This document shows, piece by piece, positions 14,344 through 55,558 of a DNA stretch of 64,000 nucleotides. A model generated the notes under the pieces. It was not told the DNA's origin and made no database searches. It saw only the letters and a list, made by a program, of their open reading frames with translations. Positions within the stretch are counted from its first letter, which is position 1. Each line of letters starts with the position of its first letter. The DNA is from Ignavibacteriota bacterium (GTDB taxonomy: Bacteria > Bacteroidota > Ignavibacteria > UBA10030), in contig CAVSHO010000001.1 in assembly GCA_963727825.1 (NCBI GenBank), positions 96,001 to 160,000 on the forward strand. Reading direction: 5' to 3'. Position numbers and translations under genes: made by a program.

Positions 14344-16752
14344 TCACTTTTCTTTCCGATTCAAACGGAGAGCAGCATAAACTTGCCCCAAGGCAATTCC
14401 TCCATCATTTGGCGGAATGCGCTGATGCCAGTATGGGTGAAACCCTTCTTCACGTAACCGTTTTACACTGTGTTCAGTTAGATATTTATTCTGAAAGCAT
14501 CCGCCGGAAAGCACCACATGATTTTGTCTGATCTTCATTGCAACTGCTACGATTATTTCAACGAGCGTATTATGAAATTTTACAGAGATAATTGATTGAC
14601 TAATATGATCTTTCATATCTGTAAGAATTCCTTCGAAAATTGGCCGCCAGTCAACTTTTTTAAGATTTAGTGCTTCGTCAATTTCAAAGGGATAACATTC
14701 TTTGCTCTCCACACCTTGTGTCAAAAACTCCAACTCCATTGCTCCTTGACCCTCGTAATTTACGATCTGTCTTAATCCAATAAGCGATGCGACAGCATCA
14801 AAGAGTCTGCCTGCGCTTGTGGTAGCAGGCGTATTGACCTTCTTTACAAACATTTGTTTAAGCACATCAAGTTCCACTGACGTGAATGAAAGTACAGAAA
14901 TTAAATCGTCACGATGAAAAATATCCCCGCCAAATATTTCGTACAAAATACCAAGTGCAACGCGCCGCGGTTCTTTAATGGCTTTTTCTCCACCGGGTAA
15001 TCGAAAAGGATGGAAGGTGGCAATGCGCTCGAATGATGTGTCAGTTGTCAGTAGAAATTCGCCGCCCCAGATATTTCCATCGAGGCCATACCCTGTCCCA
15101 TCCCAGGAGACGCCAAGCAATTCGCCCTCCAATTGATTCTCCACCATACAAGAAGCTATATGTGCATAATGATGTTGGACTTCTATGAGTGGAATGCCGG
15201 TGTTTCGAGCAAACTTCGAAGATAGATAATCGGGATGAAGGTCGCAAACAATCTGCGCAGGCTTTACTTCGTACAGCGTTTGGAAATCTGTGATTACTCG
15301 ATGAAATGCATCTAACGATTCTTTCGTTTCTAAATCACCAATATACTGACTGATAAACACGTTGTCTTCAGATGTCAGCGCAACAGTGTTCTTGAGGTGT
15401 GCGCCAACTGCCAGTAGGGACACGCCATGGCGTGTCCCTACTACTGAGATGGGTAACGGTGCATATCCTCGTGCTCGGCGAAGTACTAACTCGCGTTCCA
15501 TTATAATACGAACAATAGAATCATCAATATGCCGCACAATCGGCCGGTTGTGAACAAGAAATATATCTGCAATGCCGTTAAGCCGATGAAGAGCTTCATA
15601 CTCATCGATACAAATCGGTTCGTCTGACAAATTACCACTTGTTGCGACAACCGGAGAACCAAGTTCTTTCATTAGGATGTGATGCAGCGGAGTGTATGGC
15701 AGCATCACACCAAGATATGGATTGTTGGGAGCAACAGAAGTTGAGATGGAAGATGGGAGATGATAATTAGACTGTCCCAATCTATTTTCATTCTGTCTTC
15801 TGCCTTCTGATTTCTGAATCCTTTTTAGCAACACAATCGGAGATTCCGGTGAAAGAAGAAGTCTCGTTTCAAATTCGTTAACTTCGCATTCTAATTTTAT
15901 TGCTTCTAATGAATGGAACATCAGCGCCAGCGGTTTCTCTTCCCGATGCTTCCTCTTGCGAAGACGGCGCACTGCTTCGTCATTGTGAGCATCAACCATC
16001 AAATGAAATCCGCCAAGCCCTTTGACGGCGACAATTTTACCGGCTCGAATCATTTCCACGGCTTGAAGTAACGAATCGTGTCTTTCAGCAATTACGGTTC
16101 CTTTGTCATTCCACAATTCTAATTTTGGCCCGCATACGGGACATGCATTTGGCTGGGCATGAAATCGGCGGTTGAGCGGATTTTCGTACTCTGCCTTACA
16201 CTCCGGACACATCTCAAATTTCTTCATTGATGTATTCGGTCGATCGTACGGTAATGCTTCAATAATAGAAAAGCGCGGTCCGCAGTTTGTGCAATTAGTA
16301 AAAGGATAAAGGTAGCGGCGATTTGATAAATCGAAGATATCTTTCAAACAGTCAAGACAGGTTGAGATATCGGGAAGAACCAGCGCAGACTTTGTTCCGG
16401 TAGAATCACTTTTACGAATCTCAAAAGACGTGAATCCCATTGAATCAAGAAATGAGAACTCTAAACTCTGGATAAATGCTCGTGGCGGAATTTCTTTTTG
16501 TATACGAAACAGAAAATGATTTAGAATGTCTTTTTCCCCTTCGACTTCAAGGAAGACACCTTGAGCAGAGTTCGATACCCAGCCCGGCAGGTTCATCTCT
16601 GTCGCCAATCGATAGACGAATGGCCGAAATCCTACGCCTTGCACCGCGCCGCGAATAACGACTCTCAGCCGCCCTCTTTCTGTTTTTTTTTGATTTCTTT
16701 CTTGCACTGCACTTACAAGGTGCAAAAAAATCTTGTGAGAATCAGTATGCAA
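14344..16752 (-). CDS. hypF: Carbamoyltransferase HypF (start uncertain; GTG 16707 possible)
   Basis: GAVQGVGFRPFV acylphosphatase domain, zinc fingers (NCTNCGPRF, CPVCGP), KGLGGFHL, VATSGN, QHHYAH, PPNDGGIALGQ. Confidence 0.96.
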   Translation of the reverse strand: MHTDSHKIFLHLVSAVQERNQKKTERGRLRVVIRGAVQGVGFRPFVYRLATEMNLPGWVSNSAQGVFLEVEGEKDILNHFLFRIQKEIPPRAFIQSLEFSFLDSMGFTSFEIRKSDSTGTKSALVLPDISTCLDCLKDIFDLSNRRYLYPFTNCTNCGPRFSIIEALPYDRPNTSMKKFEMCPECKAEYENPLNRRFHAQPNACPVCGPKLELWNDKGTVIAERHDSLLQAVEMIRAGKIVAVKGLGGFHLMVDAHNDEAVRRLRKRKHREEKPLALMFHSLEAIKLECEVNEFETRLLLSPESPIVLLKRIQKSEGRRQNENRLGQSNYHLPSSISTSVAPNNPYLGVMLPYTPLHHILMKELGSPVVATSGNLSDEPICIDEYEALHRLNGIADIFLVHNRPIVRHIDDSIVRIIMERELVLRRARGYAPLPISVVGTRHGVSLLAVGAHLKNTVALTSEDNVFISQYIGDLETKESLDAFHRVITDFQTLYEVKPAQIVCDLHPDYLSSKFARNTGIPLIEVQHHYAHIASCMVENQLEGELLGVSWDGTGYGLDGNIWGGEFLLTTDTSFERIATFHPFRLPGGEKAIKEPRRVALGILYEIFGGDIFHRDDLISVLSFTSVELDVLKQMFVKKVNTPATTSAGRLFDAVASLIGLRQIVNYEGQGAMELEFLTQGVESKECYPFEIDEALNLKKVDWRPIFEGILTDMKDHISQSIISVKFHNTLVEIIVAVAMKIRQNHVVLSGGCFQNKYLTEHSVKRLREEGFHPYWHQRIPPNDGGIALGQVYAALRLNRKEK
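15413..15442. repeat. Perfect 30-bp GTAG-type REP-like palindrome inside hypF
   Basis: AGTAGGGACACGCCATGGCGTGTCCCTACT equals its own reverse complement; read in frame within VVGTRHGVSLL. Confidence 0.85.
15743..15818. repeat. Opposed heptamer arrays inside hypF
   Basis: GAGATGG AAGATGG GAGATGA ... TTCTGTC TTCTGCC TTCTGAT TTCTGAA. Confidence 0.65.
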
Positions 16753-16817
16753 GAATTCTAAACCATCATCGTTATAAAGGTGTTTATTCTTTCCTAAAAA
16801 AGTATTTAATTAAAACG

Positions 16818-16991
16818 GTAATTACTCAGCAGGTTTTCTGTATCGTGGAAAATAATCCCTCTCCTCACAGGAGAGGGATAGGGTGAGGTCAAATAAAAGA
16901 AATGACCCCACCTGATCCTCCCCTATAGGAGAGGAAATTTTTTAAAAAACCCGATATATAAAAAGGTTAAAAGATGATACTGAGTAGTTAC
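16818..16991. mobile_element. MITE-like element containing a CCCTCTCC/GGAGAGGG REP doublet
   Basis: TIR GTAATTACTCAG / CTGAGTAGTTAC (11/12); flanks TTAAAACG 16810-16817 and TTAAAACA 16992-16999; internal 11-bp stem ATCCCTCTCCT-CAC-AGGAGAGGGAT. Confidence 0.65.
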
Positions 16992-17041
16992 TTAAAACAT
17001 ATTGTATCGAAAAGCATAAACACAAAGGAAAAGAATCAGGC

Positions 17042-18343
17042 ATGATTTGGAATGAATATATTGAATGCATGGATCGGGAACGGCTTGCAAAATTGCAGGG
17101 TGAACGACTCTCCGCAATGGTAGAAAAACTCTATTATAATGTGCCGTTCTATCGCCAAAAATTTCAGAAAAGCGGAATCGAACCAGGAGATATAAAAAAC
17201 GTCAACCAATTAAAAAATCTGCCTTTTACCATGAAGCAGGATTTGCGAGATAATTATCCCTTCGGTTTATTTGCAGTTCCGGCATCGGAAATTGTGCGCG
17301 TGCATGCCTCAAGCGGCACAACAGGGAAGCCGACTGTTGTGGGATATACGCGAAAGGATCTTGAAATTTGGTCTGAGGTCGTAGCCCGCACACTCACTTC
17401 AGCCGGAGGCGGTAAGAACGATGTATTGCATATTGCGTATGGCTATGGTTTGTTCACAGGTGGATTGGGTATCCATTATGGTGCAGAAAAAATTGGTGCA
17501 GCCGTCATTCCTGTTTCCGCCGGCAACACCCAGCGCCAATTACAATTGATGCAAGATCTTGGTTCCACAATCCTCGCCTGTACACCATCGTATGCTCTTC
17601 ATTTGGCAGAGGCAATTGCTGAAGCAGGTATATCGACAAATTCATTGAAGCTTAAAGCTGGAGTATTTGGAGCCGAGCCATGGACTGAAGAAATGCGTCG
17701 TGAAATTGAAGATAAATTGAAAATTAAGGCAATTGATATTTATGGATTAAGCGAGGTGATTGGACCAGGTGTTGCTTCTGAATGTATGTGTCAAAAAGGT
17801 CTGCATATTTTTGAAGACCATTTTATTCCGGAGGTAGTCGATCCGGAAACACTAGAAGTACTTCCCTATGGTCAGATGGGGGAATTGGTATTCACCTGTA
17901 TTACGAAGGAAGCGTTGCCATTGCTCCGATACCGCACACGTGATCTTACGGTATTGAATCCTGAAAAATGCGAGTGTGGACGTACACTTATGCGAATGAA
18001 AAAATGTCTCGGCCGTTCGGATGATATGCTGATTATCAGAGGAGTAAATGTTTTTCCATCGCAAATAGAAGCAGTGCTGCTCGAGATGAGCGAAACCAAA
18101 CCACATTACTTACTTATTGTTGATAGAGTAAATAACCTTGATGTTCTGGAAATATGGGTTGAAGTTGAAGGGCAATTCTTCTCTGATGAAATTAAAAAAC
18201 TGGAAGAACTTAAGAAAAAGGTACAACACAAGATTGAATCAACTTTAGGTATCAGTGCAATTGTAAAGTTAGTTGAACCAAAAACCATCGAACGCAGCGA
18301 AGGCAAAGCCAAAAGAGTAATAGATAAAAGAAAAATAAAATAG
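17042..18343 (+). CDS. paaK: Phenylacetate-CoA ligase
   Basis: [56 protein letters not shown]. Confidence 0.93.
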
Positions 18344-18349
18344 GACGCT

Positions 18350-18775
18350 ATGATCATAAAACAACTTTCAGTATTTCTCGAAAATAAGTCGGGCCGACTG
18401 ACTGAAGTGACCGAAACATTAGCTTCAGCACAAATTAATATCTCTGCTTTCAGTATTGCCGATACCTCTGAATTCGGCATTCTGCGGATGATAGTTAGCA
18501 AGCCGGAAGCAGCGGAAGCTGCATTGAAGGCAAAGGGGATTTCTGTTCATATCACAGAAGTTGTCGCTGTCGTGGTTCCGCACAATCCTGGTGGTTTACA
18601 CAGGACATTAGAAATTCTTTCTTCCGAAGGAATTAGCGTAGAATATATGTACGCATTTGCTATGGGCGATCGTGCGACTGTGATCATTCGTACCGATGCA
18701 ATTCAACAGACCATTACAGTTTTACAGAAGCATAAAATGGAATTGCTCAAATCAAGCGACATCTATGAAATTTAA
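18350..18775 (+). CDS. Tandem ACT-domain amino-acid-binding protein
   Basis: KQLSVFLENKSGRL, ADTSEFGILR, VEYMYAF; usual partner of paaK in anaerobes. Confidence 0.88.
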   Translation: MIIKQLSVFLENKSGRLTEVTETLASAQINISAFSIADTSEFGILRMIVSKPEAAEAALKAKGISVHITEVVAVVVPHNPGGLHRTLEILSSEGISVEYMYAFAMGDRATVIIRTDAIQQTITVLQKHKMELLKSSDIYEI

Positions 18776-18858
18776 ATACTAAACTCCAAATGACAATAAA
18801 ACAAATCTCAAACAAGCTCCAACAAAAAAATATCAAATAATAAATCTGAAATCACAAC
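18774..18858 (+). repeat. Degenerate AAATNNN heptamer array, left flank of four-helix-bundle gene
   Basis: AAATACT AAACTCC AAATGAC ... AAATCTC ... AAATATC AAATAAT AAATCTG AAATCAC. Confidence 0.65.
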
Positions 18859-18868
18859 TAGTTTTCAA

Positions 18869-19228
18869 ATGGATAAAATCCAAATAAAAAAGCCATACGA
18901 TCTTGAAGAACGGACGCTCCAGTATACAAAAGACGTTATTTCTCTGGTTAGTAAGGCAACAAAGAATTTATCAAATATTGAAATCGCAAAACAATTGATT
19001 CGATCATCGGGATCAGTGGGAGCTAATTATATTGAGGCAAATGAATCTTTGGGAAAGAAAGACTTTGTGATGCATGCACGGATAGCTCGTAAGGAGGCAA
19101 AAGAAAATCGTTATTGGCTACAGTTAATGGAATGCAACGACTATTTGCAACCATTAAGAGATCAATTGACTCAAGAATCAACGGAATTATTGAAAATTCT
19201 TAGCAAGATCATTGAGAAATCAACTTGA
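18869..19228 (+). CDS. Four helix bundle protein (TIGR02436 / 23S rRNA-IVP / Avd-like)
   Basis: DLEERT, QLIRSSGSVGANYIEA, KEAKENRYWL. Confidence 0.9.
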   Translation: MDKIQIKKPYDLEERTLQYTKDVISLVSKATKNLSNIEIAKQLIRSSGSVGANYIEANESLGKKDFVMHARIARKEAKENRYWLQLMECNDYLQPLRDQLTQESTELLKILSKIIEKST

Positions 19229-19284
19229 TTCGGAATTTTGAGTTTGTTATTTGTTTGTGATTTGGGTGTTGATAATTGGAATTT
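19226..19284 (+). repeat. Degenerate NNNATTT heptamer array, right flank, complementary to 18774-18858
   Basis: GGAATTT TGAGTTT GTTATTT ... GTGATTT GGGTGTT GATAATT GGAATTT. Confidence 0.65.
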
Positions 19285-19308
19285 CAATTAAAGATATTGG
19301 ATAAGTTT

Positions 19309-20514
19309 ATGAATCGTTATTCCAAATCCGTTTCTTCTCTTCGTACATCAGAGATCCGAGATCTCATGGGGCTTGCAACGCGGGCGGATATTATTTCGTT
19401 TGCCGGCGGTATGCCGGGTAACGAACTGTTTCCCGTTGAAGAAATCGACGAGATCTATAACAATTTGCCCCTCGATATAAAACAAACTGCTTTTCAATAT
19501 GGCCCTACACCTGGGTACCCACCACTACTTGAATCTTTGAAAGAGTATTTAAAAAAGAAAGGAATGCCGGTTGAAACAAACAAGTTGATGATTACAACCG
19601 GTTCTTTGCAGGCGATCAATATTCTTGCAAAAGTATTTATCAATCCGGAGGATTTAGTTGTTACGGAAAATCCTTGTTTTATTGGAGGAATTTCTGCATT
19701 CAAATCATATCAAGCAAATCTTCACGGAATAAATTTGGATGACAATGGAATTGATATCTTTTCTTTGAAGAGTTTTTTAGATGGTACGAAATATATGCCC
19801 CCAAAATTTATTTATCTTACGCCAAACTTTCATAATCCTGCCGGCATACTTTATACAGAACAGCGAAAGGAAGAATTGGTGCCTGTGCTTCAAGAGCATG
19901 ATTTAATGCTAATCGAAGATGATGCATATGGCGAATTGTATTTCGATGAAGAAGCGAAAAAAAGAGTAGTTCCTTTGAAAGCATTATATGAAGGTAAGCT
20001 TGATATATGTTATACAAGCTCTTTTTCAAAAATACTCGGGCCTGGTTTTAGATTAGGTTGGATGTTAGTACCTAATGAGATTTATCAGAAAGCAGAATTG
20101 TGCAAGCAGTCAATGGATGCTTGTTCTCCTAACTTTACGCAAGTTTTAGCAAATGAATTCCTGCGAAGCGGTAAGATGGATCTCTACATAAAAAAAATGC
20201 GGGTAATTTATAGGCGGCGTAAAGATACAATGGCTATTGCCATCCGCAAATATTTTCCCGATGAAATTACTTGGGTGGAGCCAAAAGGCGGGTTTTACAT
20301 TTGGTTAAAATTACCATCGAAAATTGATATTATGTCCGTGCTAAAAGCAAGCATCGAAAAAGGTGCTGTATTTGTAATTGGAAAAACATTCGATCCAGAA
20401 GGGGAGGATAATAGTCATTTCAGGTTGGCATACTCGCACACCCCTGAAGATAAAATCGAAAAAGGTATTCATATTCTTGGCGATGCGTTGAAGAAAGCAA
20501 TGGCACAATCATAG
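19309..20514 (+). CDS. PLP-dependent class I aminotransferase (LysN / aromatic aminotransferase-like)
   Basis: ISFAGGMP, PNFHNPAG, IEDDAY, SSFSKILGPGFRLGW. Confidence 0.88.
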   Translation: MNRYSKSVSSLRTSEIRDLMGLATRADIISFAGGMPGNELFPVEEIDEIYNNLPLDIKQTAFQYGPTPGYPPLLESLKEYLKKKGMPVETNKLMITTGSLQAINILAKVFINPEDLVVTENPCFIGGISAFKSYQANLHGINLDDNGIDIFSLKSFLDGTKYMPPKFIYLTPNFHNPAGILYTEQRKEELVPVLQEHDLMLIEDDAYGELYFDEEAKKRVVPLKALYEGKLDICYTSSFSKILGPGFRLGWMLVPNEIYQKAELCKQSMDACSPNFTQVLANEFLRSGKMDLYIKKMRVIYRRRKDTMAIAIRKYFPDEITWVEPKGGFYIWLKLPSKIDIMSVLKASIEKGAVFVIGKTFDPEGEDNSHFRLAYSHTPEDKIEKGIHILGDALKKAMAQS

Positions 20515-20583
20515 CATTCCAATTCCGGAAATCTATTTCTAAATCGAATTCCTGCGTTAATTCCCAATAATTCAAAAAAAAAC

Positions 20584-21519
20584 ATGATATATAATACAAA
20601 ACGATTGACATCTTATTTAATCGTCGTATTTCTTTTGTTTGCGGATCTTTCATCTTCACAAAACCAGAATAATCCTTTACCGGTTAAAAATGTGAACAAT
20701 GAAGATCAGTACAACATCTATTTTCGTAAAGCAGACAATCACTTAGGCAAATATGAATTTGAAGAGTCCATTAAGGATTGCGAATTAGCCCTAAATTATA
20801 ATGCGAATGATTTTCTCATACGTGCAATGATGTGTCTGAATTATTATGAAATTGCAGAAAGACTTGACGTGAAGAAGTCTGGCGACAAAGATAAAAAGAT
20901 CGAGATATATAAAAAAATGATTCAGATTGCGGAAAAAGGAATAGCTTGTGCGCCAGATAAGGGTGAGTGCTATTTCATGCGGGGATTGGCAAATGCAAGA
21001 ATGGCAACAACTAAAGGAGTTCTTTCCCAATTGTTTACAGCGAAACAAATTGAGACTGATTGGCTAGTGGCAGTAAATCGCAAATCTGATTATGTGACAC
21101 CAAATGGGGAGAACCTTCAAGCATCCAGTTGTTTGGCGCTTGGAGTATACTATCGACTCTGTCCGACTTTCTTTTTGCTCAAATGGATATTTGGAATCAG
21201 TGGCGATCTTGAAAAAGCGGTTACATATTGCAGGAAGGCATATGATCTGGATTCGACAAGAATTGAGATTGTAAAAGAATATGGTGTTGCACTGATAACG
21301 CGTGGATTGGAATCTAAGAACGAAAATGATATCGAACGAGGCAAAGAATATTTGCGAAAGGTGGCTTCTCTGCCGTTACGGTTACAGACAGATAAAACTG
21401 ATATCGAACATAGTAAAATGCTTCTAGAGAATATAAGCTTATGCCCAGGATATTCAAGAGATGAAGAACAAGATGTTTCCAAAGAAACATTTACTAAGGA
21501 AAATTCAGTGTCGCACTGA
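20584..21519 (+). CDS. Exported TPR-like hypothetical protein
   Basis: N-terminal hydrophobic signal; helical TPR-like segments (AVTYCRKAYDLD, GECYFMRG). Confidence 0.6.
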   Translation: MIYNTKRLTSYLIVVFLLFADLSSSQNQNNPLPVKNVNNEDQYNIYFRKADNHLGKYEFEESIKDCELALNYNANDFLIRAMMCLNYYEIAERLDVKKSGDKDKKIEIYKKMIQIAEKGIACAPDKGECYFMRGLANARMATTKGVLSQLFTAKQIETDWLVAVNRKSDYVTPNGENLQASSCLALGVYYRLCPTFFLLKWIFGISGDLEKAVTYCRKAYDLDSTRIEIVKEYGVALITRGLESKNENDIERGKEYLRKVASLPLRLQTDKTDIEHSKMLLENISLCPGYSRDEEQDVSKETFTKENSVSH

Positions 21520-21552
21520 ACTTGTTATTGCGATGAATATCGCTTATGACTG

Positions 21553-22179
21553 TTATGCCAAATGGTTGTTTACGCTCGCAAGAATATCGGAAGTAGAAGT
21601 TTCTAAAGAAGTGCGATAATGTTCTACCTCAGTTTTAGTTTGAGCAACAAAGTCAGCATCAATTAATGAACCGAGGTTAATTTTAACATTCAACATCGCC
21701 CCTTCACACCCTGCATGCAACATCAGCGCGGCGACACCGGCATCAGAAATAGAATTTTGATTTCCCTTTTCCACAATTATTTTGACAAGTTCCATTGCTT
21801 CAATGCAAAGTCCTATGAGTCTTAGCGGAACGAGTGTAGCCATTTTTATTGCATTCTGAATTTCTACTGCACGTTTTACTTTCTGTTCTTCTGTTTCCTT
21901 TGGCAATCCATATGCCGCCATAACCTGGTCGAATGCTAAAGTGTCTTCTTCGATAATTGAATTGAACTTAGCGCGGAGGTTTTCGGATTGCTTCAGTGTT
22001 TTTTCCATTTCTACCTGCACATCAGCATATTTCCTTTTGCCGATGGTGAGTCGGCAGACCATTGAAGCAAGTGCGGCTCCAAGTGACGCAGCAACCGCAG
22101 AAACACTTCCACCGCCGGGCGCAGGAGTGTCGGACGCAATTTCATTGAGAAAGTAAGTAACAGAAAGAGAAGTAAGCAT
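21553..22179 (-). CDS. Formiminotetrahydrofolate cyclodeaminase
   Basis: ASDTPAPGGGSVSA, GNQNSISDAGVA, NVKINL. Confidence 0.9.
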   Translation of the reverse strand: MLTSLSVTYFLNEIASDTPAPGGGSVSAVAASLGAALASMVCRLTIGKRKYADVQVEMEKTLKQSENLRAKFNSIIEEDTLAFDQVMAAYGLPKETEEQKVKRAVEIQNAIKMATLVPLRLIGLCIEAMELVKIIVEKGNQNSISDAGVAALMLHAGCEGAMLNVKINLGSLIDADFVAQTKTEVEHYRTSLETSTSDILASVNNHLA

Positions 22180-22236
22180 ATTAAATCCTATGAGCTAATA
22201 TCGCGCTTCAGCTTCGTTCACTATGAGGTGCTTAAT

Positions 22237-23259: not shown

Positions 23260-23276
23260 ATTGAATTCTTTCTAAA

Positions 23277-24542: not shown

Positions 24543-24632
24543 AAAATATTATTTTCTATTGATAGCAAGAAAAGAAGATAATGCTTTGGAATCAAGCCAA
24601 CGCACTAACAGAGTCAAGCCATTGTAAAGTGA

Positions 24633-26294: not shown

Positions 26295-26381
26295 AACGCC
26301 GCCTTTCGATAATTACGAAAGTGGTACACAACTTGATGTGGCCTCTAAAGTTTCAAATCAGAAATCTAAGAAACTGCGAGA

Positions 26382-26864: not shown

Positions 26865-26892
26865 TTGTTTTCCTCAAATTATGTATAAAAGA

Positions 26893-41136: not shown

Positions 41137-41217
41137 TCAGTGATGAGTGAAGAGTGGTCAATGATAAGCGATAAGCGAGTGTAATAAAGTTTGAAGTAAA
41201 AATTCGTCACTCGTCAC
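41137..41217. repeat. Opposed heptamer arrays with no gene between
   Basis: TCAGTGA TGAGTGA AGAGTGG TCAATGA TAAGCGA TAAGCGA ... TCGTCAC TCGTCAC. Confidence 0.7.
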
Positions 41218-41771
41218 TATCCATTAATCTTTGATTTTAGTTTTCGTTCAGTCAATAAAATTCCGGCGATGGTTTTGCTATCCCCAATTTCGCCGCGCGC
41301 GATCATTTCTACGGCCGTGAAAAATGGAATATATTCAACCGTAAGACTTTGTTCGCCTTCATCAAGGTTTTGTCCGTGTTCGGATTTTTTCAGTCCGGTA
41401 GCAAGATATATATGAAGTACTTCGTTGCAGAACCCCGGTGTAGTGAACATTGTAGTAAGTTTTTCATACTTATCTGCTATGTAGCCGGTTTCTTCCTGTA
41501 GTTCACGTTGAGCAGCTATAAGCGGATCTTCATTGGGTTCAAGCTTTCCAGCAGGAACTTCCAAAATGAATTTTTTGTGTGGATATCGGTACTGCCGAAC
41601 AAAAATCAAATTGCCGTTGTCGAGCAACGGTACGATAACACTTCCACCCGGGTGGCTTACAATTTCACGTTTACGGATGTTGCCGGAAACATCTTTGACC
41701 TCTTCGATAATTAAATCGATGATGCGGCCGTGATACAATCTTTCTGACTTAACTATTTTAGGGAGTGACAT
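41217..41771 (-). CDS. NUDIX hydrolase (ADP-ribose pyrophosphatase-like)
   Basis: RQYRYP, Nudix box PAGKLEPNEDPLIAAQRELQEETGY, TPGFCNE. Confidence 0.9.
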   Translation of the reverse strand: MSLPKIVKSERLYHGRIIDLIIEEVKDVSGNIRKREIVSHPGGSVIVPLLDNGNLIFVRQYRYPHKKFILEVPAGKLEPNEDPLIAAQRELQEETGYIADKYEKLTTMFTTPGFCNEVLHIYLATGLKKSEHGQNLDEGEQSLTVEYIPFFTAVEMIARGEIGDSKTIAGILLTERKLKSKING

Positions 41772-42870: not shown

Positions 42871-42871
42871 T

Positions 42872-46867: not shown

Positions 46868-46868
46868 G
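46832..46868 (+). repeat. 3' end of MTase gene, copy 1 of a 37-bp direct repeat
   Basis: 32/37 identical to 47892-47928. Confidence 0.8.
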
Positions 46869-46879
46869 GATATTTTGAA

Positions 46880-47890: not shown

Positions 47891-47891
47891 T

Positions 47892-47928
47892 TGGGTAGAG
47901 AAAGATAAATTGAGTTTTTGGAAAAAAG
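47892..47928 (+). repeat. Copy 2 of the 37-bp MTase 3' end repeat, just upstream of the S subunit ATG
   Basis: TGGGTAGAGAAAGATAAATTGAGTTTTTGGAAAAAAG. Confidence 0.8.
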
Positions 47929-47930
47929 AA

Positions 47931-49372
47931 ATGCAAACCTCCGTTGTAAATTAGCTAAAGACTTAAACTTTGAATTTCGGTTCGATGCCGAGTATTACAG
48001 GGCTGAAATCCTAAAGAATATCAGATTGCTAGATAAAAAAGAAAACGCTGTACTAAGCTGATCTTGCATATTTTGTAATAGGGCCTTTCGGTTCTACCGT
48101 AACAGTAGATCAGTATGTGCCAGTCTCAAATTATAGATATGTAAGAAATAGGGATATAAATGATTTTCAAATCAAGCGATAATGAACAAGCTTTTATACC
48201 TGAGCAAGTTTACAGGGCACTACCTCAATTCCACATTAAAGAAAATGACTTGTTAATTACAGTTGTTGGTATCTTTGGGTAAAGTGGCTATCGCTACACA
48301 AAAAAATGATTCATCAATATTCAGCTGTAAAAGCACGATCATCCGAATTAAAAGGATCGATCCGCTTTATCTACTTGTCTATTTAAATTCAAACGTAGGA
48401 CAGTTATTTGCTTTGCGTGGTGTAAGGGGTGCCATTCAACAAGGATTGAATCTGTCAGATTTGAAGGGAATCAAAGTCATTTATTCCGTCGGAAGATTTC
48501 CAAAAGACTATCCGAGCAAATGTTTCTAAGGCGTTTGTTATTAAACCGCGGAGGCAGAAAATCTTGAAGAATATAGCTCAAGCCGAGCAAATACTTCTTT
48601 CCGAATCTTGGTCTTTTATACTGGAACCCAAAACATCGTCTTTCATTTATCAAGAATTTCTCCGACGCGCAGACCAGCAAGCGCATCGATGCCGAATATT
48701 TCCAGCCGATGTATGAGGAAGTGGTCAAATCGATCAAAGCATCAAAAAACCATTCCAAGTTGGGCGACATTGTTTCAATTAAAAAGTGCATTGAGCCGGG
48801 GAGCGAAGCATATCAAGATAGCGGTATTCCATTTTTAAGAGTTAGCAATATTTCTAAGTTCGGAATTAATAATGACAATCAGCAATACGTTTCCGAGTTA
48901 TTATACGAAAGTCTCAAAACGTACCAGCCAAAGAAAGGCGAAATTCTCTTATCAAAGGATGCTACGCCGGGAATTGCATATTACTTAAAAGATGCGCCGG
49001 GAAAAACGATTCCATCCGGCGGAATACTAAGGGTAACAGTAAAAGATACAAACTATGTTTATCGTGAATATCTTCACTTTAGTCTTGAATTCAACTATTG
49101 TTCAAAAACAAATCGAACGCGATGCGGGCGGATCAATAATCAATCACTGGCTTGTTGATCAAGTGAAAGATACTTTAATCCCAATTCTTCCCATATCAGT
49201 GCAAAAGAAGATTGCGGAAAAAGTTGATCAATCATTTTCTGATCGTAAGCAATCAAAGCAACTTCTTGACATCGCCAAGCGAGGTGTAGAAATTGCCATC
49301 GAGAAAAGCGAGGCAGAAGCAGAAAAGTGGATGAAGGCAGAAGAGAAAAAGATTGTAGAAGGAAAAGCCTAA
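47931..49372 (+). pseudogene. hsdS: Restriction-modification specificity (S) subunit, multiply frameshifted (pseudogene or sequencing errors)
   Basis: RFDAEYY and RIDAEYFQP half-repeats, GPFGS, PFLRVSNI, KGEILLSKD, helical spacer SKQLLDIAKRGVEIAIE; pieces lie in different frames. Confidence 0.78.
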
Positions 49373-49581
49373 TTGTCCAGTCACACTTAAATTCCACTCT
49401 CACATGAAGTATTATTGCAAATGGCACTTTGTGAAAATATTTTATCTGGGGCTTTATGAATATTTGTTTTTCAGATTTTCTTTAAAAAACATGGTATTTG
49501 TCTTCTGAATTTCTCTCAAAAAATCAGTAAGTTATACACACTGAAAATTATTCTAGAGTTTTATATGAAAGGACTGGCGCT

Positions 49582-51138
49582 ATGGCGCACGAACCTTTTA
49601 AGAATGAACCGCTAACCGATTTTTCCAAACCGGCAAATCAGAAAGCGATGGAAACAGCATTAGCCAAAGTAAAGGCGATGCTTGGAAAAGAATATCATCT
49701 TGTTATCGGTAGTGAAGAAATCTGCACTGACGACAAATTGAAATCTATAAATCCATCTCGGCCAAGCGAAGTGGTTGGAGTGTTCTCGAAAGCGAATCCT
49801 GATCTTGCAAATAAAGCGATCGAGACTGCCACTGGAAAGTTTGAGGAATGGAAATGGACTGATCCGAAAAAGCGTGCCGATTACCTCTTCAAAGCCGCAA
49901 AGTTGATGCGCCAGCGGAAGCATGAATTCAGCGCGGTAATGATTTACGAAGTCGGCAAGACGTGGCCTGAAGCCGATGCTGATACTGCGGAAGCAATCGA
50001 CTTCCTCGAGTTTTATGCGCGAGAGATGCTGCGCTATTCCGGTAAGCAGCCAATTACAAAGATTCCTGGTGAAAAAAGTGAAATGTGGTACATTCCGCTG
50101 GGAGTGGGTGTTATATTGCCGCCATGGAATTTTGCGCTCGCAATTCTTACAGGTATGACATCAGCCGCTATCGTTACCGGCAATACCGTAGTACTAAAGA
50201 CATCCAGCGATTCGCCGCTTACAGGTTGGATGTTTTTCAACTTGATGCGTGAGGTTGGATTACCCGCTGGTGTGATCAACTTTATGACTGGTTCCGGCGC
50301 TTCTATCGGTGACGTGCTTGTTGCGCATCCGAAAACGCGTTTCATTTCGTTCACAGGATCGAAGGAAGTCGGTATTCATATCAATGAACTTGCGGCAAAG
50401 GTTCAACCCGGACAAAAATGGCTCAAGCGCGTCATTGCAGAGATGGGCGGGAAAGATTCTATCATTATTGACAATCAAACTGATCTCAATGCGGCAGCAC
50501 AAGCATCTCTTGTTTCGGCATTTGGTTTTCAGGGGCAAAAATGTTCAGCCGCTTCCCGCGCAATAGTAGTTGAGAAAGTTTACGATAAGTTTCTCGATAT
50601 ATTAAAAATAAAAGTTGATGAACTAAAAACCGGTCAATCGGATGATCCGGCAAATTATATGGGCCCGGTAGTCAATAAAGGTTCAGAAGAGAAAATTCTC
50701 TCGTACATCCAAAAAGGAATTCAAGAAGGCGGCCGGTTGATCTGCGGAGGCGGTAAAGCCGAAGGAGACGGATTTTTCATCAATCCGACAGTTATTGCCG
50801 ATGTCGATCCTATTGGGACGATTTCGCAGGAAGAAATATTTGGCCCAGTACTTGCAGTTATTAAAGTTAAAGATTTCAATCAAGCCCTTGAAGTGGCAAA
50901 CAATACAGAATTCGGTCTCACCGGCGGCGTCTGGACGAGGAATAGAAAAAAAATTGAAAAAGCGAAGGAGGTATTTCACGTTGGGAATTTTTATGTGAAT
51001 CGAAAAATTACCGGAGCACTTGTTGGCGTGCATCCCTTCGGCGGATTTAATATGTCCGGTACGGATTCAAAAGCTGGCGGACGTGATTACTTATTGCTGC
51101 TTATGCAAGCAAAGGCTTTATCGGAAAAGATCAGATAA
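49582..51138 (+). CDS. pruA: 1-pyrroline-5-carboxylate dehydrogenase (RocA/PruA type)
   Basis: PFKNEP, EAIDFLEFY, PPWNF, FTGS, AEMGGKD, FQGQKCSA, EEIFGPV, SGTDSKAGG. Confidence 0.93.
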   Translation: MAHEPFKNEPLTDFSKPANQKAMETALAKVKAMLGKEYHLVIGSEEICTDDKLKSINPSRPSEVVGVFSKANPDLANKAIETATGKFEEWKWTDPKKRADYLFKAAKLMRQRKHEFSAVMIYEVGKTWPEADADTAEAIDFLEFYAREMLRYSGKQPITKIPGEKSEMWYIPLGVGVILPPWNFALAILTGMTSAAIVTGNTVVLKTSSDSPLTGWMFFNLMREVGLPAGVINFMTGSGASIGDVLVAHPKTRFISFTGSKEVGIHINELAAKVQPGQKWLKRVIAEMGGKDSIIIDNQTDLNAAAQASLVSAFGFQGQKCSAASRAIVVEKVYDKFLDILKIKVDELKTGQSDDPANYMGPVVNKGSEEKILSYIQKGIQEGGRLICGGGKAEGDGFFINPTVIADVDPIGTISQEEIFGPVLAVIKVKDFNQALEVANNTEFGLTGGVWTRNRKKIEKAKEVFHVGNFYVNRKITGALVGVHPFGGFNMSGTDSKAGGRDYLLLLMQAKALSEKIR

Positions 51139-51140
51139 TA

Positions 51141-51214
51141 TTTGTCGATTTTCGATCTTGTGATTTAGTGATCGAGAAGAATAAATCAGTAATTGTAAAT
51201 TGGAAATAACTAAA
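51141..51214. repeat. Degenerate opposed 7/8-nt arrays, empty
   Basis: TGTCGAT TTTCGAT CTTGTGAT TTAGTGAT ... AAATCAGT AATTGTA AATTGGA AATAACT AAA. Confidence 0.45.
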
Positions 51215-51216
51215 AA

Positions 51217-51732
51217 ATGCCTGAATACATAAAATGTGCTTACTGTAGTGAAGAAATAACGGCAGATAGCGATTTCTGTCCGCATTGTGGTACTTTGTTT
51301 GCGAAAGCCGGTACTGTGTTTTGTGATTTGCATCCGCTGGAACACGGAGCAGGTATTTGTATTATCTGCCGCAAACTTTGTTGCGAAGAATGCGGTGCTA
51401 AGGTTCACGGACGGTTTTTATGTTCAGCACATCGAAAAGTTAGAGTGGAACAAGATTGGGTAGAAGTTTTTCGTTCGACAGAAATTTCCGATGCAGAGCT
51501 GGTGAAATCAGTTTTAGAATCAGCCGGGCATAAAGTGTTGGTGCAGAATTTTAATTCTATCGGATTTATCTGGGATGGCGGAGGTGATTCGCCAATCTCG
51601 CGCAGTAACATCAATAAGCCGGCGAAAGTATTTGTGCCAATTCCTGAATATTTGGATGCGATAGAAGAAATTGTGGATTGGAAATCATCGGAAACTAATA
51701 TTGATGAAGTAGAATCTGGGCACCAGGATTGA
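51217..51732 (+). CDS. Zinc-ribbon / B-box-like + DUF2007-like protein
   Basis: CAYC..CPHCG, CDLHP..CIIC..CCEEC..CSAH; AELVKSVLESAG. Confidence 0.65.
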   Translation: MPEYIKCAYCSEEITADSDFCPHCGTLFAKAGTVFCDLHPLEHGAGICIICRKLCCEECGAKVHGRFLCSAHRKVRVEQDWVEVFRSTEISDAELVKSVLESAGHKVLVQNFNSIGFIWDGGGDSPISRSNINKPAKVFVPIPEYLDAIEEIVDWKSSETNIDEVESGHQD

Positions 51733-51750
51733 ACATAAGAGGAATTCACC

Positions 51751-52914
51751 ATGAAGATTCACGAATATCAAGGAAAAGAAGTCCTAAGAAAGTTTGGAGT
51801 TCCTGTTCCCAAAGGAGAAGTGGCATTCACGATTGATGATGCTGTGAAAGCGGCTGAGAAAATCGGCGGAAGCATATGGGTTGTCAAAGCGCAAATTCAA
51901 GCTGGCGGACGCGGCAAAGGCGGCGGTGTTAAAATAGCTCGAAGTTTAGAAGAAGTTCGCGAGCGCGCCGGTGAAATTCTCGGCATGCGCCTCATTACGC
52001 ATCAAACAGGACCGGAAGGGCGCATCGTCCGTCGCTTACTTGTTGAGCAAGGGATGAATATTGCAAAGGAAATGTATGTAGGCATTACGCTGGATCGTCA
52101 GCGCTCGCAAAATGTTGTCATGGTCTCGACGGAAGGCGGAGTGGAGATTGAAAAGGTCGCTGTCGAAGCGCCGGATAAAATATTGAAAGAAACAATCAAT
52201 CCTGTAATCGGATTTCAACAGTTTCAAGCTCGGACACTTTGCTTCGGCCTCGGGCTAACAGGCGATGCATTTAAAAACGGAGTCAAATTTTTATTAGCTC
52301 TCTACAAAGCATATGAAGCTACCGATGCGTCTTTGGCTGAAATTAATCCGCTCGTCATTACGCAGGAAGGGCATGTCGTTGCGCTCGATGCTAAAATCAA
52401 CTTTGATGACAACGCGCTTTTCCGCCATCCGGAATACGAGCAATTGCGCGATATTGATGAAGAAGAACCCCTTGAAGTGGAAGCCGCTGCATCCAATCTT
52501 AATTATATAAAACTCGATGGCAATGTCGGCTGTATGGTTAATGGTGCCGGGCTTGCAATGGCGACAATGGATATTATCAAGCTTGCGGGCGGAATGCCTG
52601 CGAACTTTCTTGATGTAGGCGGCGGCGCAAGCGCAGAGACGGTGGAAGCCGGATTTAAAATTATTTTGAAAGATGAGAATGTTAAAGCCATTCTTATTAA
52701 TATTTTTGGTGGTATTGTACGTTGCGATCGTGTTGCGACTGGGGTTGTAGAAGCTGCGAAAAATATCGATGTGCAAGTTCCTATCGTCGTACGTCTCGCC
52801 GGAACGAACGCCGAACTCGCAGCTGAGATTTTGAAAAGCTCTGGATTAAAATTTCTTGTCGCTGGAACGTTAAAAGAAGCAGCAGAGAAAGTAACAAGTG
52901 CTATTGCGGCGTGA
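51751..52914 (+). CDS. sucC: Succinyl-CoA synthetase beta subunit
   Basis: IHEYQGK, AGGRGKGGGV, EINPL, VNGAGLAMATMD, NFLDVGGG, NIFGGIVRCD. Confidence 0.96.
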   Translation: MKIHEYQGKEVLRKFGVPVPKGEVAFTIDDAVKAAEKIGGSIWVVKAQIQAGGRGKGGGVKIARSLEEVRERAGEILGMRLITHQTGPEGRIVRRLLVEQGMNIAKEMYVGITLDRQRSQNVVMVSTEGGVEIEKVAVEAPDKILKETINPVIGFQQFQARTLCFGLGLTGDAFKNGVKFLLALYKAYEATDASLAEINPLVITQEGHVVALDAKINFDDNALFRHPEYEQLRDIDEEEPLEVEAAASNLNYIKLDGNVGCMVNGAGLAMATMDIIKLAGGMPANFLDVGGGASAETVEAGFKIILKDENVKAILINIFGGIVRCDRVATGVVEAAKNIDVQVPIVVRLAGTNAELAAEILKSSGLKFLVAGTLKEAAEKVTSAIAA

Positions 52915-52923
52915 AGAAAGTTA

Positions 52924-52951
52924 TGAGTGACCAGTGATGAGTGATCATTGG
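52924..52951 (+). repeat. NNAGTGA heptamer array
   Basis: TGAGTGA CCAGTGA TGAGTGA TCATTGG; CAGTGATGAGTGA identical to 41138-41150. Confidence 0.6.
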
Positions 52952-52962
52952 ATAAAAGTGAA

Positions 52963-53166
52963 ATGATGAAACGATCTATAAAAACGGTTGTTCATAAATA
53001 TCAATTAGGCAAAGAACCGAATAATTTTTCCTATTGGCGGAGACAGAGAGTTTCGCGTCGACTTTCCACCGCAGAGGAACTACGTAATTTATTTATCACA
53101 ATGAATTATGGAACTCGACCAAAATTTCAAAGAGTTTGTCGAATTATTAAACCGAAACAGAGTTGA
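52963..53166 (+). CDS. Small basic protein, probable partner of the downstream nucleotidyltransferase (TA-like pair)
   Basis: YWRRQ..RRLSTAEELR..KFQRVCRII; overlaps the start of the next gene. Confidence 0.55.
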   Translation: MMKRSIKTVVHKYQLGKEPNNFSYWRRQRVSRRLSTAEELRNLFITMNYGTRPKFQRVCRIIKPKQS

Positions 53167-53589
53167 ATATTTAATCGTTGGCGGTTATGCAGTTATTGCA
53201 CATGGTTACCCAAGGTCTACCGGTGATCTCGATGTATGGGTAAATCCGACACAATCGAACGCAAAAAAAGTTCTTCATGTATTAAAAGAGTTTGGCTTTG
53301 AAAAATTAAAAACAACTGAAAAAGACTTATTCACAAAAAGGAACAATTCTACAGTTTGGATATGTACCGTTAAGGATTGACATTCTTACCGGTATTGATG
53401 GAGTTGAATTTGAAGAAGCTTTTCCCGAAAAGTTTTAAAAGAAGTATTATGGTATTTTAATCAATTTTATAGGTAAAGAGGCGCTCAAAAAAAAATAAAA
53501 TTAGCGCTGGTAGGAATAGAGATTTGGCAGATTTAGAAGAACTAAAAGAAAAAAACGAAAGAAATAATTTTTATCTCTCTACTCAATGA
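53108..53589 (+). pseudogene. Nucleotidyltransferase (DUF6036-like); frameshifted, with an in-frame TAA
   Basis: YLIVGGYAV..HGYPRSTGDLDVWV; downstream frames give PLRIDILTGIDGVEF and NKISAGRNRDLADLE. Confidence 0.72.
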
Positions 53590-53612
53590 CTCATAGACTC
53601 AACTACTTAAAT
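53581..53612 (+). repeat. ACTCANNN octamer array upstream of gatB
   Basis: ACTCAATG ACTCATAG ACTCAACT ACTTAAAT. Confidence 0.7.
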
Positions 53613-53653
53613 ACTTTTTTCCTTTTTCATTTGATACTTTTGCATTGAATACT

Positions 53654-55111
53654 ATGCCCTGGAATGAAAATTACGAACCTGTTATTGGACTTGAAGTCCA
53701 TGCAGAATTATTAACCAAGTCGAAAGCATTCTGCAGTTGTTCGACAAAATTTGGAAGTGATCCGAACTCTAACGTTTGTCCGGTCTGCCTTGGTATGCCG
53801 GGAGTGCTTCCTGTTTTGAACAAAAACCTTGTTGAGTTCATTATGAGGATGGGTTTGGCGACAAACTGTACCATCGCGCCTAAATCTATCTTTGCCAGAA
53901 AAAATTATTTTTATCCGGATTTGCCAAAAGGTTATCAGATATCGCAGTATGAAGAACCGATATGTGCAAACGGTTGGCTGGATGTTGAACTGAAGGATGG
54001 AACGATAAGGCGAATCGGCATAACACGAATTCATATGGAAGAAGATGCTGGCAAATCGATTCACGATCAGGACACAGATACTCTTGTGGATGTGAACCGG
54101 TGCGGCGTTCCACTTATCGAGATCGTTAGTGAACCCGATATGCATACGCCGCATGAGGCATATCAGTATCTTTATATGATTCGCCAGATCGTTACATATC
54201 TTGGCATCTGTGATGGCAATATGGAAGAAGGAAGTCTTCGGTGCGATGCGAATGTTTCTGTCCGAAAAAAAGGCGAAACAAAATTAGGAACAAAACTTGA
54301 AGTAAAGAATTTGAATTCTTTTCGCTTTGTTGAGAAAGCGCTCGAATATGAAATCAATCGTCAAATAGAGGCACTTGAAAATGGAGAACAGATAATTCAA
54401 CAGACATTACTCTGGGATGCCGATAAAGGAGTTTGCGTTCCGATGCGCATGAAAGAGGAAGCACATGATTATCGCTACTTCCCCGATCCTGATTTAGTGC
54501 CCGTGCTGGTAAATCAAGAGTGGATAGATGATGTGAAAGCAAAGCTGCCGGAGCTCCCGATTGTTCGGCGCGATCGCTACATCAGAGAATTCAAATTACC
54601 AAAGTACGATGCCGATATTATTACCACAGAGCGCGAACTGGCGGACTATTTTGATGGGATCATTGAAAACCTAAAAAAGAAGGATGAAGAATCATACAAG
54701 ATCGCAAGCAATTGGACGATGGGAGACGTTTTGCGTGTAGTTAATGATCAGCATATTGCGGTTTCAGATTTCCCGATTACGCCGAAGAATCTCTCCGATA
54801 TGATCAATCTTATTATTGATAGCACTATCAGCGGCAAGATTGCCAAAGATATCTTTGAGGAAATGCTGAAAACAAAAGAATCGCCCAAAGCGATTGTCGA
54901 GAAGAAGGGCTTAGTGCAAGTAAGTGATGTTTCTGCAATCGAAAAAGTAATTGATGAAATTCTCGCGAACAACCAGGGACAGGTTGAGCAATATAAAAGT
55001 GGGAAGCAGCAGGTCTTCGGTTTCTTTGTTGGACAAACAATGAAGGCAATGAAGGGGAAAGCAAATCCGAAAGTGGTAAATGAGGTGTTACAGCGGAAGC
55101 TGAGTCTATGA
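53654..55111 (+). CDS. gatB: Asp/Glu-tRNA amidotransferase subunit B
   Basis: [48 protein letters not shown]. Confidence 0.97.
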
Positions 55112-55144
55112 GTCGTTGAGTTTTTGAGTCATTGAGTTGTTGAG
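55101..55144 (+). repeat. TGAGTNNN octamer array, left flank of four-helix-bundle gene, overlapping the gatB stop
   Basis: TGAGTCTA TGAGTCGT TGAGTTTT TGAGTCAT TGAGTTGT TGAG. Confidence 0.8.
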
Positions 55145-55170
55145 GTAAGATATTAAAGTGAATAGATAGA

Positions 55171-55524
55171 ATGAATCGGTTTAAGAATTTAAGAGTTTAT
55201 GAGAAAGCACTTGACTATTCATTTGCTGTTCGTCAATGTGTAAGGAAATTTCCGAAGGAAGAAATGTTTGGATTAATCTCTCAATGGCGAAGAGCAGCAG
55301 ACTCAATTGTTTTAAATATTGCAGAAGGCGCAGGAAATTCATCAAAATTGGAATATGCCAGGTTCTTGGATATTGCTATTCGTTCCGGGTTTGAATGTTT
55401 AGCTTGTTTAGATATCGCGATTCGGAGTAAATATGTAGATAAAATAAATTATGACGAACTCTCTTCTCAGACAAATGAAATTATTGCCATGCTGGATGGA
55501 TTGAAAAAAGCAATCAAGAAATAA
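55171..55524 (+). CDS. Four helix bundle protein (23S rRNA-IVP / Avd-like)
   Basis: FKNLRVYEKA, FPKEEMFGLISQWRRAADSIVLNIAEG, FLDIAIRSGFE. Confidence 0.9.
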   Translation: MNRFKNLRVYEKALDYSFAVRQCVRKFPKEEMFGLISQWRRAADSIVLNIAEGAGNSSKLEYARFLDIAIRSGFECLACLDIAIRSKYVDKINYDELSSQTNEIIAMLDGLKKAIKK

Positions 55525-55525
55525 T

Positions 55526-55558
55526 ACTCATAGACTCAACGACTAATTACTCAAAGAC
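55526..55558 (+). repeat. ACTCANNG octamer array, right flank, complementary to 55101-55144
   Basis: ACTCATAG ACTCAACG ACTAATT ACTCAAAG AC. Confidence 0.8.

Follow-up and report, generated by a model that had tools for sequence, protein, structure and literature searches.

The question raised by this locus is what kind of element is formed when a single small gene stands between two tandem arrays that are complementary to each other, inside the spacer of an operon of housekeeping genes. The locus lies in a 64,000-nt stretch of an Ignavibacteriota bacterium genome (the window; G000:C1:96001-160000, where G000 is the source assembly, 3.12 Mb in 14 contigs with ~41% G+C). The boxed genes encode four-helix-bundle (4HB) proteins of the family PF05635, the "23S rRNA intervening-sequence protein" family, and we refer to such a gene (the cargo) with its two arrays (the arms) as a cassette. 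A first-pass annotation of the window had listed six sites with paired arrays. Of this list, the pairing stands for 18774-19286 and 55101-55552, stands weakly for 41139-41218, and falls for 52924-53612, 51141-51214 and 15743-15818. The two 4HB cassettes of the window are real and highly non-random, and the comparisons with related and distant genomes reported here suggest that repeat-armed 4HB boxes are an undescribed kind of mobile gene cassette.

Two 4HB cassettes fill operon spacers of the window

A profile search recovered two PF05635 genes in the window (curated cut-off 33.8 bits), each enclosed by a left and a right arm:

18774-18857, + strand: cassette 1 left arm, an A/C-rich array of AAATnnC-type units that begins on the stop codon of the ACT-domain gene
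18869-19228, + strand: cassette 1 4HB gene, PF05635, 119 aa, 59.6 bits, between the ACT-domain gene and the aminotransferase gene
19229-19286, + strand: cassette 1 right arm, a G/T-rich array of GnnATTT-type units complementary to the left arm
55101-55144, + strand: cassette 2 left arm, TGAGTnnn units (Tandem Repeats Finder period 8, 5.5 copies)
55171-55524, + strand: cassette 2 4HB gene, PF05635, 117 aa, 107.3 bits, between gatB and tpiA
55526-55552, + strand: cassette 2 right arm, ACTCAnnn units, terminating ~25 nt upstream of the tpiA start

The arms of cassette 1 are AT-rich and pair over 18-30 nt with 70-83% complementarity. Period 7 was detected at 18828-18853 of the left arm, homologous left arms occur at the ACT-aminotransferase junction of relatives, and the right arm terminates ~20 nt upstream of the aminotransferase start. 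In cassette 2, the first units of the left arm contain the final codons and the stop of gatB, and positions 55108-55129 pair with 55526-55547 over 22 nt at 86% complementarity, a perfect 13-nt pair included. When the RNA of either cassette was folded, the arm-arm stem closed both the minimum-energy and the centroid structure. The cassette 2 protein is related in sequence to those of PDB entries 2GSC (E 8.6e-11) and 2RLD (E 1.6e-6), which have five chains per entry, and it is under strong purifying selection, since its gene shows dN/dS values of 0.02-0.09.

Paired arrays are associated with PF05635 genes in this genome and across phyla

The association was measured by local alignment of the 100 nt upstream of a gene to the reverse complement of the 100 nt downstream, for 2601 genes of G000 called as crude longest open reading frames (ORFs); RNAduplex applied to 120-nt flanks gave no discrimination, and local alignment was used instead. 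The scores had a median of 14 and a 99th percentile of 23. G000 carries six PF05635 genes, all above the profile cut-off, and all six lie within the top 27 of the 2601 with scores of 23-30, cassette 1 scoring 23 and cassette 2 scoring 30 (rank 8, a score reached by 0 of 500 shuffles). Most of the remaining high scorers are Y1 transposase genes flanked by repetitive extragenic palindromes (REP) or form part of an integron-like array of cassettes on contig C11. The six cassettes each have their own unit (AGGTnnnn, TGAGTnnn, AGTGATn, AAAGTCA, an A-rich unit and AAATnnC), and the functions of the host genes around them are unrelated.

With an alignment of six 4HB proteins as the query, 80 loci were collected from species genomes of Bacteroidota, Cyanobacteria, Acidobacteriota, Planctomycetota, Omnitrophota, Desulfobacterota and Proteobacteria, 69 of them with usable flanks. 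A flank score of at least 22 was found at 48 of the 69 loci (median 28). In the controls it was reached by 1 of 65 windows shifted outwards by 200 nt, by 10 of 69 when the flanks were compared in direct orientation and by 11% when partners were permuted; the related genomes and the loci are phylogenetically non-independent, and the cross-phylum counts overstate significance. The arms at these loci are tandem arrays, with a best period of 7 in 20 of the 22 loci listed, 6 in one and 8 in one. Of 31 related genomes, 30 also had PF05635 genes, at most 15 copies in one genome, and a control search detected the family in Bacteroides thetaiotaomicron. The enrichment of paired arrays around PF05635 genes that had been anticipated from the window was thus borne out, with 6/6 in G000 and 48/69 elsewhere against 1/65 shifted controls.

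Arrays as such are abundant in G000, where 396 score at least 10 compared with 148 in a Markov-simulated genome, as counted by an array caller that was loosened after a strict version had missed degenerate arrays; 173 of the 396 fall in non-coding DNA, which makes up 20% of the genome. Three array pairs of this genome were considered as cassettes and rejected: at C9:247679 an array lies inside a flavoprotein gene, at C10:232549 a ferredoxin-type subunit gene lies between the arrays, and C1:389478 is inside an aminotransferase gene. At the first of these sites, a TGATCAC array (C9:247679-247712) stands at the start of an ORF that resembles the C-terminal part of an HI0933-type flavoprotein, and it may split or truncate the flavoprotein gene.

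Apparent exchange of cassettes between species at the gatB-tpiA junction

The gatB-tpiA junction was read in 29 relatives, which gave 14 intact cassettes, one partial cassette (G009), one right-arm remnant (G013) and 13 junctions without a cassette. Twelve of the intact cassettes belong to the genus of G000 (12 of its 15 members), and the other two to G023 and G024 from other families. In G013, a close relative with a 95% identical TpiA, the gene and the left arm are gone, and the remnant resembles the right arm of G005. The intact cassettes have the following arm types (left / right):

TGAGTC / GACTCA: G000, G006, G001, G008
TGAGAT / ATCTCA: G005, G015, G011, G004
TGAGCC / GGCTCA: G014, G012, G002, G010
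TGAGTAG / CTACTCA: G023
GAAGTCGT / ACTTCA: G024

The left and right arms change together in each type. The fraction of left-arm 6-mers complemented in the right arm is 0.25 at the same locus, 0.26 within the same type and 0.09 across types, which upholds the earlier claim that the fit of a left arm is better with the right arm of its own cassette than with arms of other types.

Some junctions have features of their own. The left arm of G012 contains a GC-rich hairpin (GACCCGCC...GGCGGGC) nested in the TGAGCC array, as if a second palindromic element had been inserted, and the right arm of G014 is expanded to ~190 nt. G014 also carries a solo array of ~13 TGAGCC units at its nudix-pdp junction; one unit type therefore recurs across loci within a genome. 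In G019 and G030, both from other families, tpiA directly follows sucC with no gatB between, so that not every genome of the order has the arrangement sucC-gatB-tpiA.

Urocanase (HutU) stood in for the species, and its tree splits into two clades. In the 4HB tree there are three type clades (SH-aLRT 99, 99 and 92), each of which mixes both HutU clades. The approximately unbiased (AU) test rejects a 4HB tree in which species clade A, a group chosen after the trees had been seen, is held together (p 3.7e-79). Synonymous divergence (dS) was compared for a close and a distant pair of species:

G000-G006 (close species): 4HB gene at tpiA 0.585; hutU 0.61; 222 nt of gatB beside the cassette 0.81
G000-G001 (distant species): 4HB gene at tpiA 0.47; hutU 2.06; 222 nt of gatB beside the cassette 2.55

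The values for G000-G006 are concordant between cassette, hutU and flank. For G000-G001, the 4HB gene at the ACT junction gave a dS of 0.50 over 100 codons, similar to that at tpiA. Because cassette dS is ~0.5 and flank and hutU dS exceed 2 in this pair, a contrast that is still about fourfold with values above 2 being saturated and the flank fragments short (222 nt), cassettes have passed, arms included, from species to species at the same junction, and the breakpoints of exchange lie at or in the arrays. Together with cassette types that cut across the species tree, this contrast agrees with the mobility in the absence of a nearby transposase that had been proposed for the window.

Loaded, empty and array-free alleles

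The first-pass annotation had predicted loaded, empty and absent alleles at orthologous junctions, and such a series is present at the ACT-aminotransferase junction of 15 relatives:

Loaded, 3/15: G013 (intact), G006 and G001 (with premature stops)
Both arms without the gene, 3/15: G005, G010, G004
Decayed arrays, 3/15: G008, G003, G002
Solo left array, 2/15: G009 (AAAACCC x6), G015
Array-free, 2/15: G011, G014
Remaining, 2/15: G012 (masked by N), G026 (different context)

The nudix-pdp junction, proposed for the same comparison, was read in 20 relatives and yielded the empty part of the series without a loaded allele. A cargo-free paired hairpin is found in five (G013, G006, G005, G011 and G007), a short solo array in five, a long solo array in one (G014), and no array or a different neighbour in nine.

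Units of the cassettes also recur elsewhere in G000. The cassette at C9:172364-172720 (C9a) has AGTGATn as its unit, and nine satellite arrays of this unit score at least 28, compared with 0 when the arms were shuffled, and they include the window sites 52919-52950 and 41139-41178. The units of C9b and C10 also have an excess of satellites, but these are AT-rich and the result is less clean, and the units of C5, C1a and C1b have few satellites. Arms of foreign cassettes were tried as decoys in this test and abandoned as confounded by base composition; the shuffled own arms were used instead. A cassette can lose its cargo and persist as an empty hairpin or a solo array, or leave a junction with no array.

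Orientation and stop codons

Neighbours could be assessed at 65 of the 69 cross-phylum loci. The 4HB gene and both of its neighbours point in the same direction at 52 of them, and the neighbours are opposite to the 4HB gene at one. In the left arms of the 48 paired loci we counted 123 stop trinucleotides on the sense strand, compared with 72.8 ± 5.8 in shuffled arms, whereas the right arms hold 63 compared with 63.9. Stops block all three frames in 15 of the 48 left arms (2.9 expected) and in 6 of the 48 right arms. Because 3 does not divide a period of 7 or 8, a stop in the unit shuts every reading frame within three units; for TAACTGA repeats, in the portion of that report available, such all-frame stops have been noted previously (PMC4679880). 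The left arm is stop-rich, and an upstream gene that runs into the array is therefore closed after a few codons. The claim that most arrays start at a stop codon holds moderately, as an enrichment: 50 of 127 intergenic arrays in G000 (39%) start no more than 10 nt after a stop, compared with 23% under random placement.

Transcript-level and DNA-level explanations

The best explanation of these observations, and one in which we place middling confidence, is that the cassettes are gene cassettes of the intervening-sequence type which reside in operon spacers instead of rRNA. Such a cassette comprises one PF05635 gene, which purifying selection keeps intact, and two inverted arrays of 7-8-nt units, and it takes up the whole gap between presumably co-transcribed host genes. 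It would be transcribed by read-through from the operon, and its arms would pair in the transcript to form a stem of more than 20 bp, like that of the 23S rRNA intervening sequences that carry S23p. Cutting or insulation of this stem by RNase III would then let the insert do the operon little harm. At the DNA level, the arrays conserved at a junction may supply the homology for replacement of one cassette by another without a transposase, to judge from the dS pattern. The 4HB protein probably acts on the arrays, which is the most economical guess. We thus favour a reading at two levels, in which arm pairing would make the insert tolerable and the arrays would serve replacement.

The transcript level of this reading is supported by the co-orientation of cassettes and neighbours (52 versus 1), by the restriction of sense stops to the left arm and by the presence of an RNase III gene in G000. 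It is also supported by the position of a predicted terminator:

56364-56390, + strand: terminator-like hairpin downstream of tpiA, the sole intergenic terminator-like site on this strand in 51000-56500

The other + strand match in that interval, at 52583-52603, is inside sucC. Coxiella provides a precedent, since the S23p intervening sequence of this organism, in the available part of its description, has a 28-bp terminal stem within which RNase III cuts and two to three tandem heptamers in its 5' arm (PMC4990558).

Several results weigh against the favoured explanation. Among the arm mismatches at 68 loci (2237 aligned columns), 83 are of the G·U type on the sense RNA and 84 of the A·C type, and the duplex energies of the arms differ little between sense and antisense (12 of 15 favour sense, mean 1.9 kcal/mol); the data therefore do not single out the sense transcript as the strand selected for pairing. 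The fold energies of whole cassettes beat those of shuffles only modestly (z -2.54 for cassette 1 and -1.40 for cassette 2), and the empty hairpins fold no better than shuffles. The loaded allele is found in 0 of the 20 relatives at the nudix-pdp junction. The six 4HB paralogues of G000 are only 19-39% identical, which gives no sign of recent spread within the genome, and some 4HB copies are decaying, with a TAA in the C10 copy and the premature stops of G001 and G006 at the ACT junction. In addition, exchange breakpoints at arrays, empty hairpins, solo arms and satellites are DNA-level phenomena, and they speak against a reading at the RNA level alone.

An alternative that we regard as possible, if doubtful, takes the cassette as a DNA-level element throughout. 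The arrays would be binding or synapsis sites, as double-stranded DNA or single-strand hairpins, for a pentameric 4HB protein that promotes recombination between arrays, with RNA pairing being incidental. The strand symmetry of the mismatch classes (83 versus 84) is as expected from such an element, and so are the breakpoints at arrays (dS of 2.55 for the 222 nt of gatB versus 0.47 for the cassette gene), the empty, solo and array-free alleles, and the satellites of a cassette's unit elsewhere in the genome. The homologues solved as five-chain entries fit as well, being related to Avd of diversity-generating retroelements (DGRs), a nucleic-acid-binding pentamer in the available parts of two reports (PMC10053308, PMC4990558). 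Such an element should be inserted in either orientation, yet 52 of 53 cassettes are co-oriented with the operon; the confinement of stop enrichment to the sense strand of the left arm and the age of the within-genome paralogues also count against it. A bolder proposal, which we think rather unlikely to hold in its entirety, is that the 4HB pentamer recognises the 7-8-nt unit of its own cassette and that the inverted arrays are portable homology or hairpin arms. The cassettes would then be transposase-free, site-retentive elements exchanged between species, the dispersed heptamer repeats (STRR, TAACTGA, GGGAATC and the satellites), long without explanation in many bacteria, would be their landing pads and footprints, and rRNA intervening sequences would be no more than their best-known special case.

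It is improbable, in our judgement, that the cassette is a domesticated operon module, whose stem and protein regulate processing, stability or translational coupling of the host genes, with pairing that juxtaposes the upstream stop and the downstream start. In its favour, the upstream stop and a point ~20 nt before the downstream start are the exact limits of the arms, the gatB-tpiA cassette is retained in 12 of 15 members of the genus and in two genomes of other families, and the dN/dS is 0.02-0.09. However, 13 of 29 relatives lack a cassette at gatB-tpiA and the close relative G013 has lost its own, the genes flanking the six cassettes of G000 have unrelated functions, and the cassette types are interchangeable. 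Finally, that polymerase slippage makes heptamer arrays in spacers, with the 4HB association and the complementarity due to chance or composition, is scarcely credible: arrays are common (396 versus 148 simulated), many are unpaired and inverted pairs are only about twice as frequent as expected, yet this account is already contradicted by the flank ranks (6/6 in G000), the cross-phylum counts (48/69 versus 1/65 controls) and the type-specific covariation of arms, and the orientation bias also stands against it.

Relation to known systems

Intervening-sequence-type cassettes, as we favour them, are best filed as a variant of the ORF-bearing rRNA intervening sequence, with which they share their anatomy and from which they depart in failing the 23S rRNA location. 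The 23S rRNA intervening sequences (S23p; Coxiella burnetii helix 45, Leptospira) have the PF05635 protein family in common with the cassettes. In both, according to the accessible part of the Coxiella account, an ORF lies within complementary termini that form a long stem; the same source describes a 5' arm heptamer copy number that varies between strains, regards the S23p intervening sequence as a selfish insert and mentions a homopentameric ring reported for a Xanthomonas 4HB protein (PMC4990558). Both cassettes of the window have arrays of period 7-8 in their left arms, as does the Coxiella 5' arm. Unlike the rRNA intervening sequences, which occupy helix 25 or 45, the cassettes adjoin protein-coding operon genes, and no Rfam family, rRNA included, was found in the window. 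They also differ in that both arms are arrays, that stops occur in the left arm, that allelic types are exchangeable and that empty or solo remnants occur.

The arms resemble dispersed heptamer repeats, namely the cyanobacterial short tandemly repeated repetitive (STRR) sequences, the TAACTGA repeats of Beggiatoaceae, Cyanobacteria and Bacteroidetes, and the GGGAATC repeats of Xanthomonas, all of which are tandem 7-nt units in spacers that often overlap the end of the upstream gene. Like genomes with STRR, G000 carries such tandem 7-nt units at many of its spacers. The cyanobacterial 4HB loci carry arms of the GTTGACT/AGTCAAC type, which we take to resemble STRR units. For the Xanthomonas repeats, 70-75 convergent pairs are described in the part of the report available (PMC4692102). 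The terms 'four-helix', 'S23' and 'intervening' are absent from the available text of the TAACTGA and GGGAATC papers (PMC4679880, PMC4692102), which make no link to boxed PF05635 genes there. A literature search in which subscription journals were mostly uncovered and supplements unopened returned no paper linking PF05635 genes outside rRNA to flanking arrays.

Integron gene cassettes (attC) are likewise promoterless, co-oriented single genes with imperfect inverted repeats that conserve pairing over sequence, and they are exchangeable between genomes. Unlike them, the 4HB cassettes have tandem arrays as arms, without GTTAGGC...GCCTAAC cores (the arms were read by eye against the C11 ends), and they are single, scattered in housekeeping operons and without an adjacent integrase. 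Outside the window, contig C11 of G000 has at ~2271-100160 a long run of small genes with imperfect inverted repeats of the GTTAGGC...GCCTAAC type and conserved outer motifs, which looks like an integron-type attC cassette array by its repeats.

The DGR accessory protein Avd has a homologous four-helix-bundle fold and family, and a DGR paper equates PF05635 with Avd in its available part (PMC10053308). Unlike in DGRs, no reverse transcriptase or template/variable repeats lie next to the cassettes, in a comparison that covered their immediate neighbours (ACT/aminotransferase and gatB/tpiA). REP/RAYT elements and MITEs (miniature inverted-repeat transposable elements) are also small spacer elements bounded by inverted repeats, and the RAYT genes of G000 score high in the flank test too. 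Their arms, however, are unique palindromes and not arrays, RAYT encodes a Y1 transposase, and MITEs are many near-identical copies, whereas the six 4HB cassettes are 19-39% identical and their arms differ. The repeated units of the arms mask short target-site duplications of the MITE or TIR-transposon kind. Three Y1-transposase-like genes of G000 with YYHIxNRG...MPNHYHL motifs, all outside the window (C10:250144-250698, C9:119928-120506 and C7:111474-112031), are REP/RAYT-like, each being flanked by copies of its own GC-rich palindrome.

Other array sites of the window

The remaining array sites of the window are the following:

52919-52950, + strand: solo AGTGATn array directly 3' of the sucC stop, not complementary to 53581-53627
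52963-53560, + strand: small ORF and DUF6036/DUF2204-type nucleotidyltransferase gene, frameshift-broken; cargo of the sucC-gatB spacer, with no complementary pair around it
53581-53607, + strand: solo right-type ACTCAnnn array just 5' of gatB, a direct copy of the cassette 2 right arm (score 36)
41139-41218, - strand: hairpin of paired arrays without cargo, lying between the stop of the NUDIX gene and the start of pdp, with GTGACGA / CACTCnT units on the mRNA strand
15744-15817, - strand: two period-7 arrays inside hypF whose in-frame translation adds ~16 residues to a loop of HypF's YrdC-like domain

In the sucC-gatB spacer, the arrays around the nucleotidyltransferase gene (52924-53612) had been described as a complementary pair. 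The alignment of the left against the right array scored 15, a value matched by 254 of 500 shuffles, and the site was set aside as a pair. The gene itself is intact in G005 and G010. The 4HB cassette at G000:C9:172337 has a left arm near-identical to the array at 52919-52950 (score 35 to the C9a arm), and the array at 53581-53607 is complementary to the cassette 2 left arm across gatB (score 40, 0 of 500 shuffles). An 8-mer CTCAnnnn array stands shortly before gatB in 10 of 15 relatives, and the type of the array at this junction is independent of the type of the downstream cassette; therefore covariation is limited to a cassette's own two arms. We also considered gatB itself as the cargo of an element spanning 53581 to 55144 and rejected this, given that the pre-gatB array does not track the cassette type and that array-free adjacency of gatB and tpiA is common.

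The hairpin at 41139-41218 is real but weak. Its arms are 15 nt long and 87% complementary, and its array-pair score is 20; inverted array pairs scoring at least 20 number 16 in the genome compared with 7.3 expected. Its fold is unexceptional (z -1.06, equalled by 31 of 200 shuffles). At 51141-51214, which had been taken for an empty paired site, an inverted-repeat search found no repeat and the fold gave a z of -0.70.

The hypF arrays are a genuine in-frame insertion, visible as a gap in the alignment to PDB 3VTH, but they are not complementary to each other, and their folds gave z values of -0.39 and +0.17. The length of this loop is hypervariable in the genus, the matched segment ranging from 178 to 208 residues. 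There is no insert in G011, G013 and G003, ~16 extra residues are present in G000, G005, G009 and G010, and G007 has ~30 extra residues with a 7-residue periodicity; the distribution of lengths departs from the HutU tree. A further protein of the window, an 869-residue multi-PAS-domain protein (10197-12806, - strand), is one of a large set of fast-evolving paralogues in the genus, which has up to seven matches per genome and open frames of up to ~2000 residues. A PAS-domain protein tried as a species marker proved to have paralogues and was dropped in favour of HutU.

Significance

Among the small orphan proteins of bacteria, PF05635 is one of the commoner families, and heptamer repeats have, to our knowledge, been catalogued for decades without a function. 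What is new here is the covariation of the arms, the exchange of cassettes between species at a fixed junction and the stop-rich left arms, and these make the class worth experimental follow-up. The connecting piece is a boxed gene with covarying arms that different species have traded at one and the same operon junction. The finding also points to horizontal exchange by elements that can do without a recombinase gene of their own. With PF05635 and the heptamer repeats tied together, rRNA intervening sequences, STRR-like repeats and the Avd relatives outside DGRs would become one testable system.

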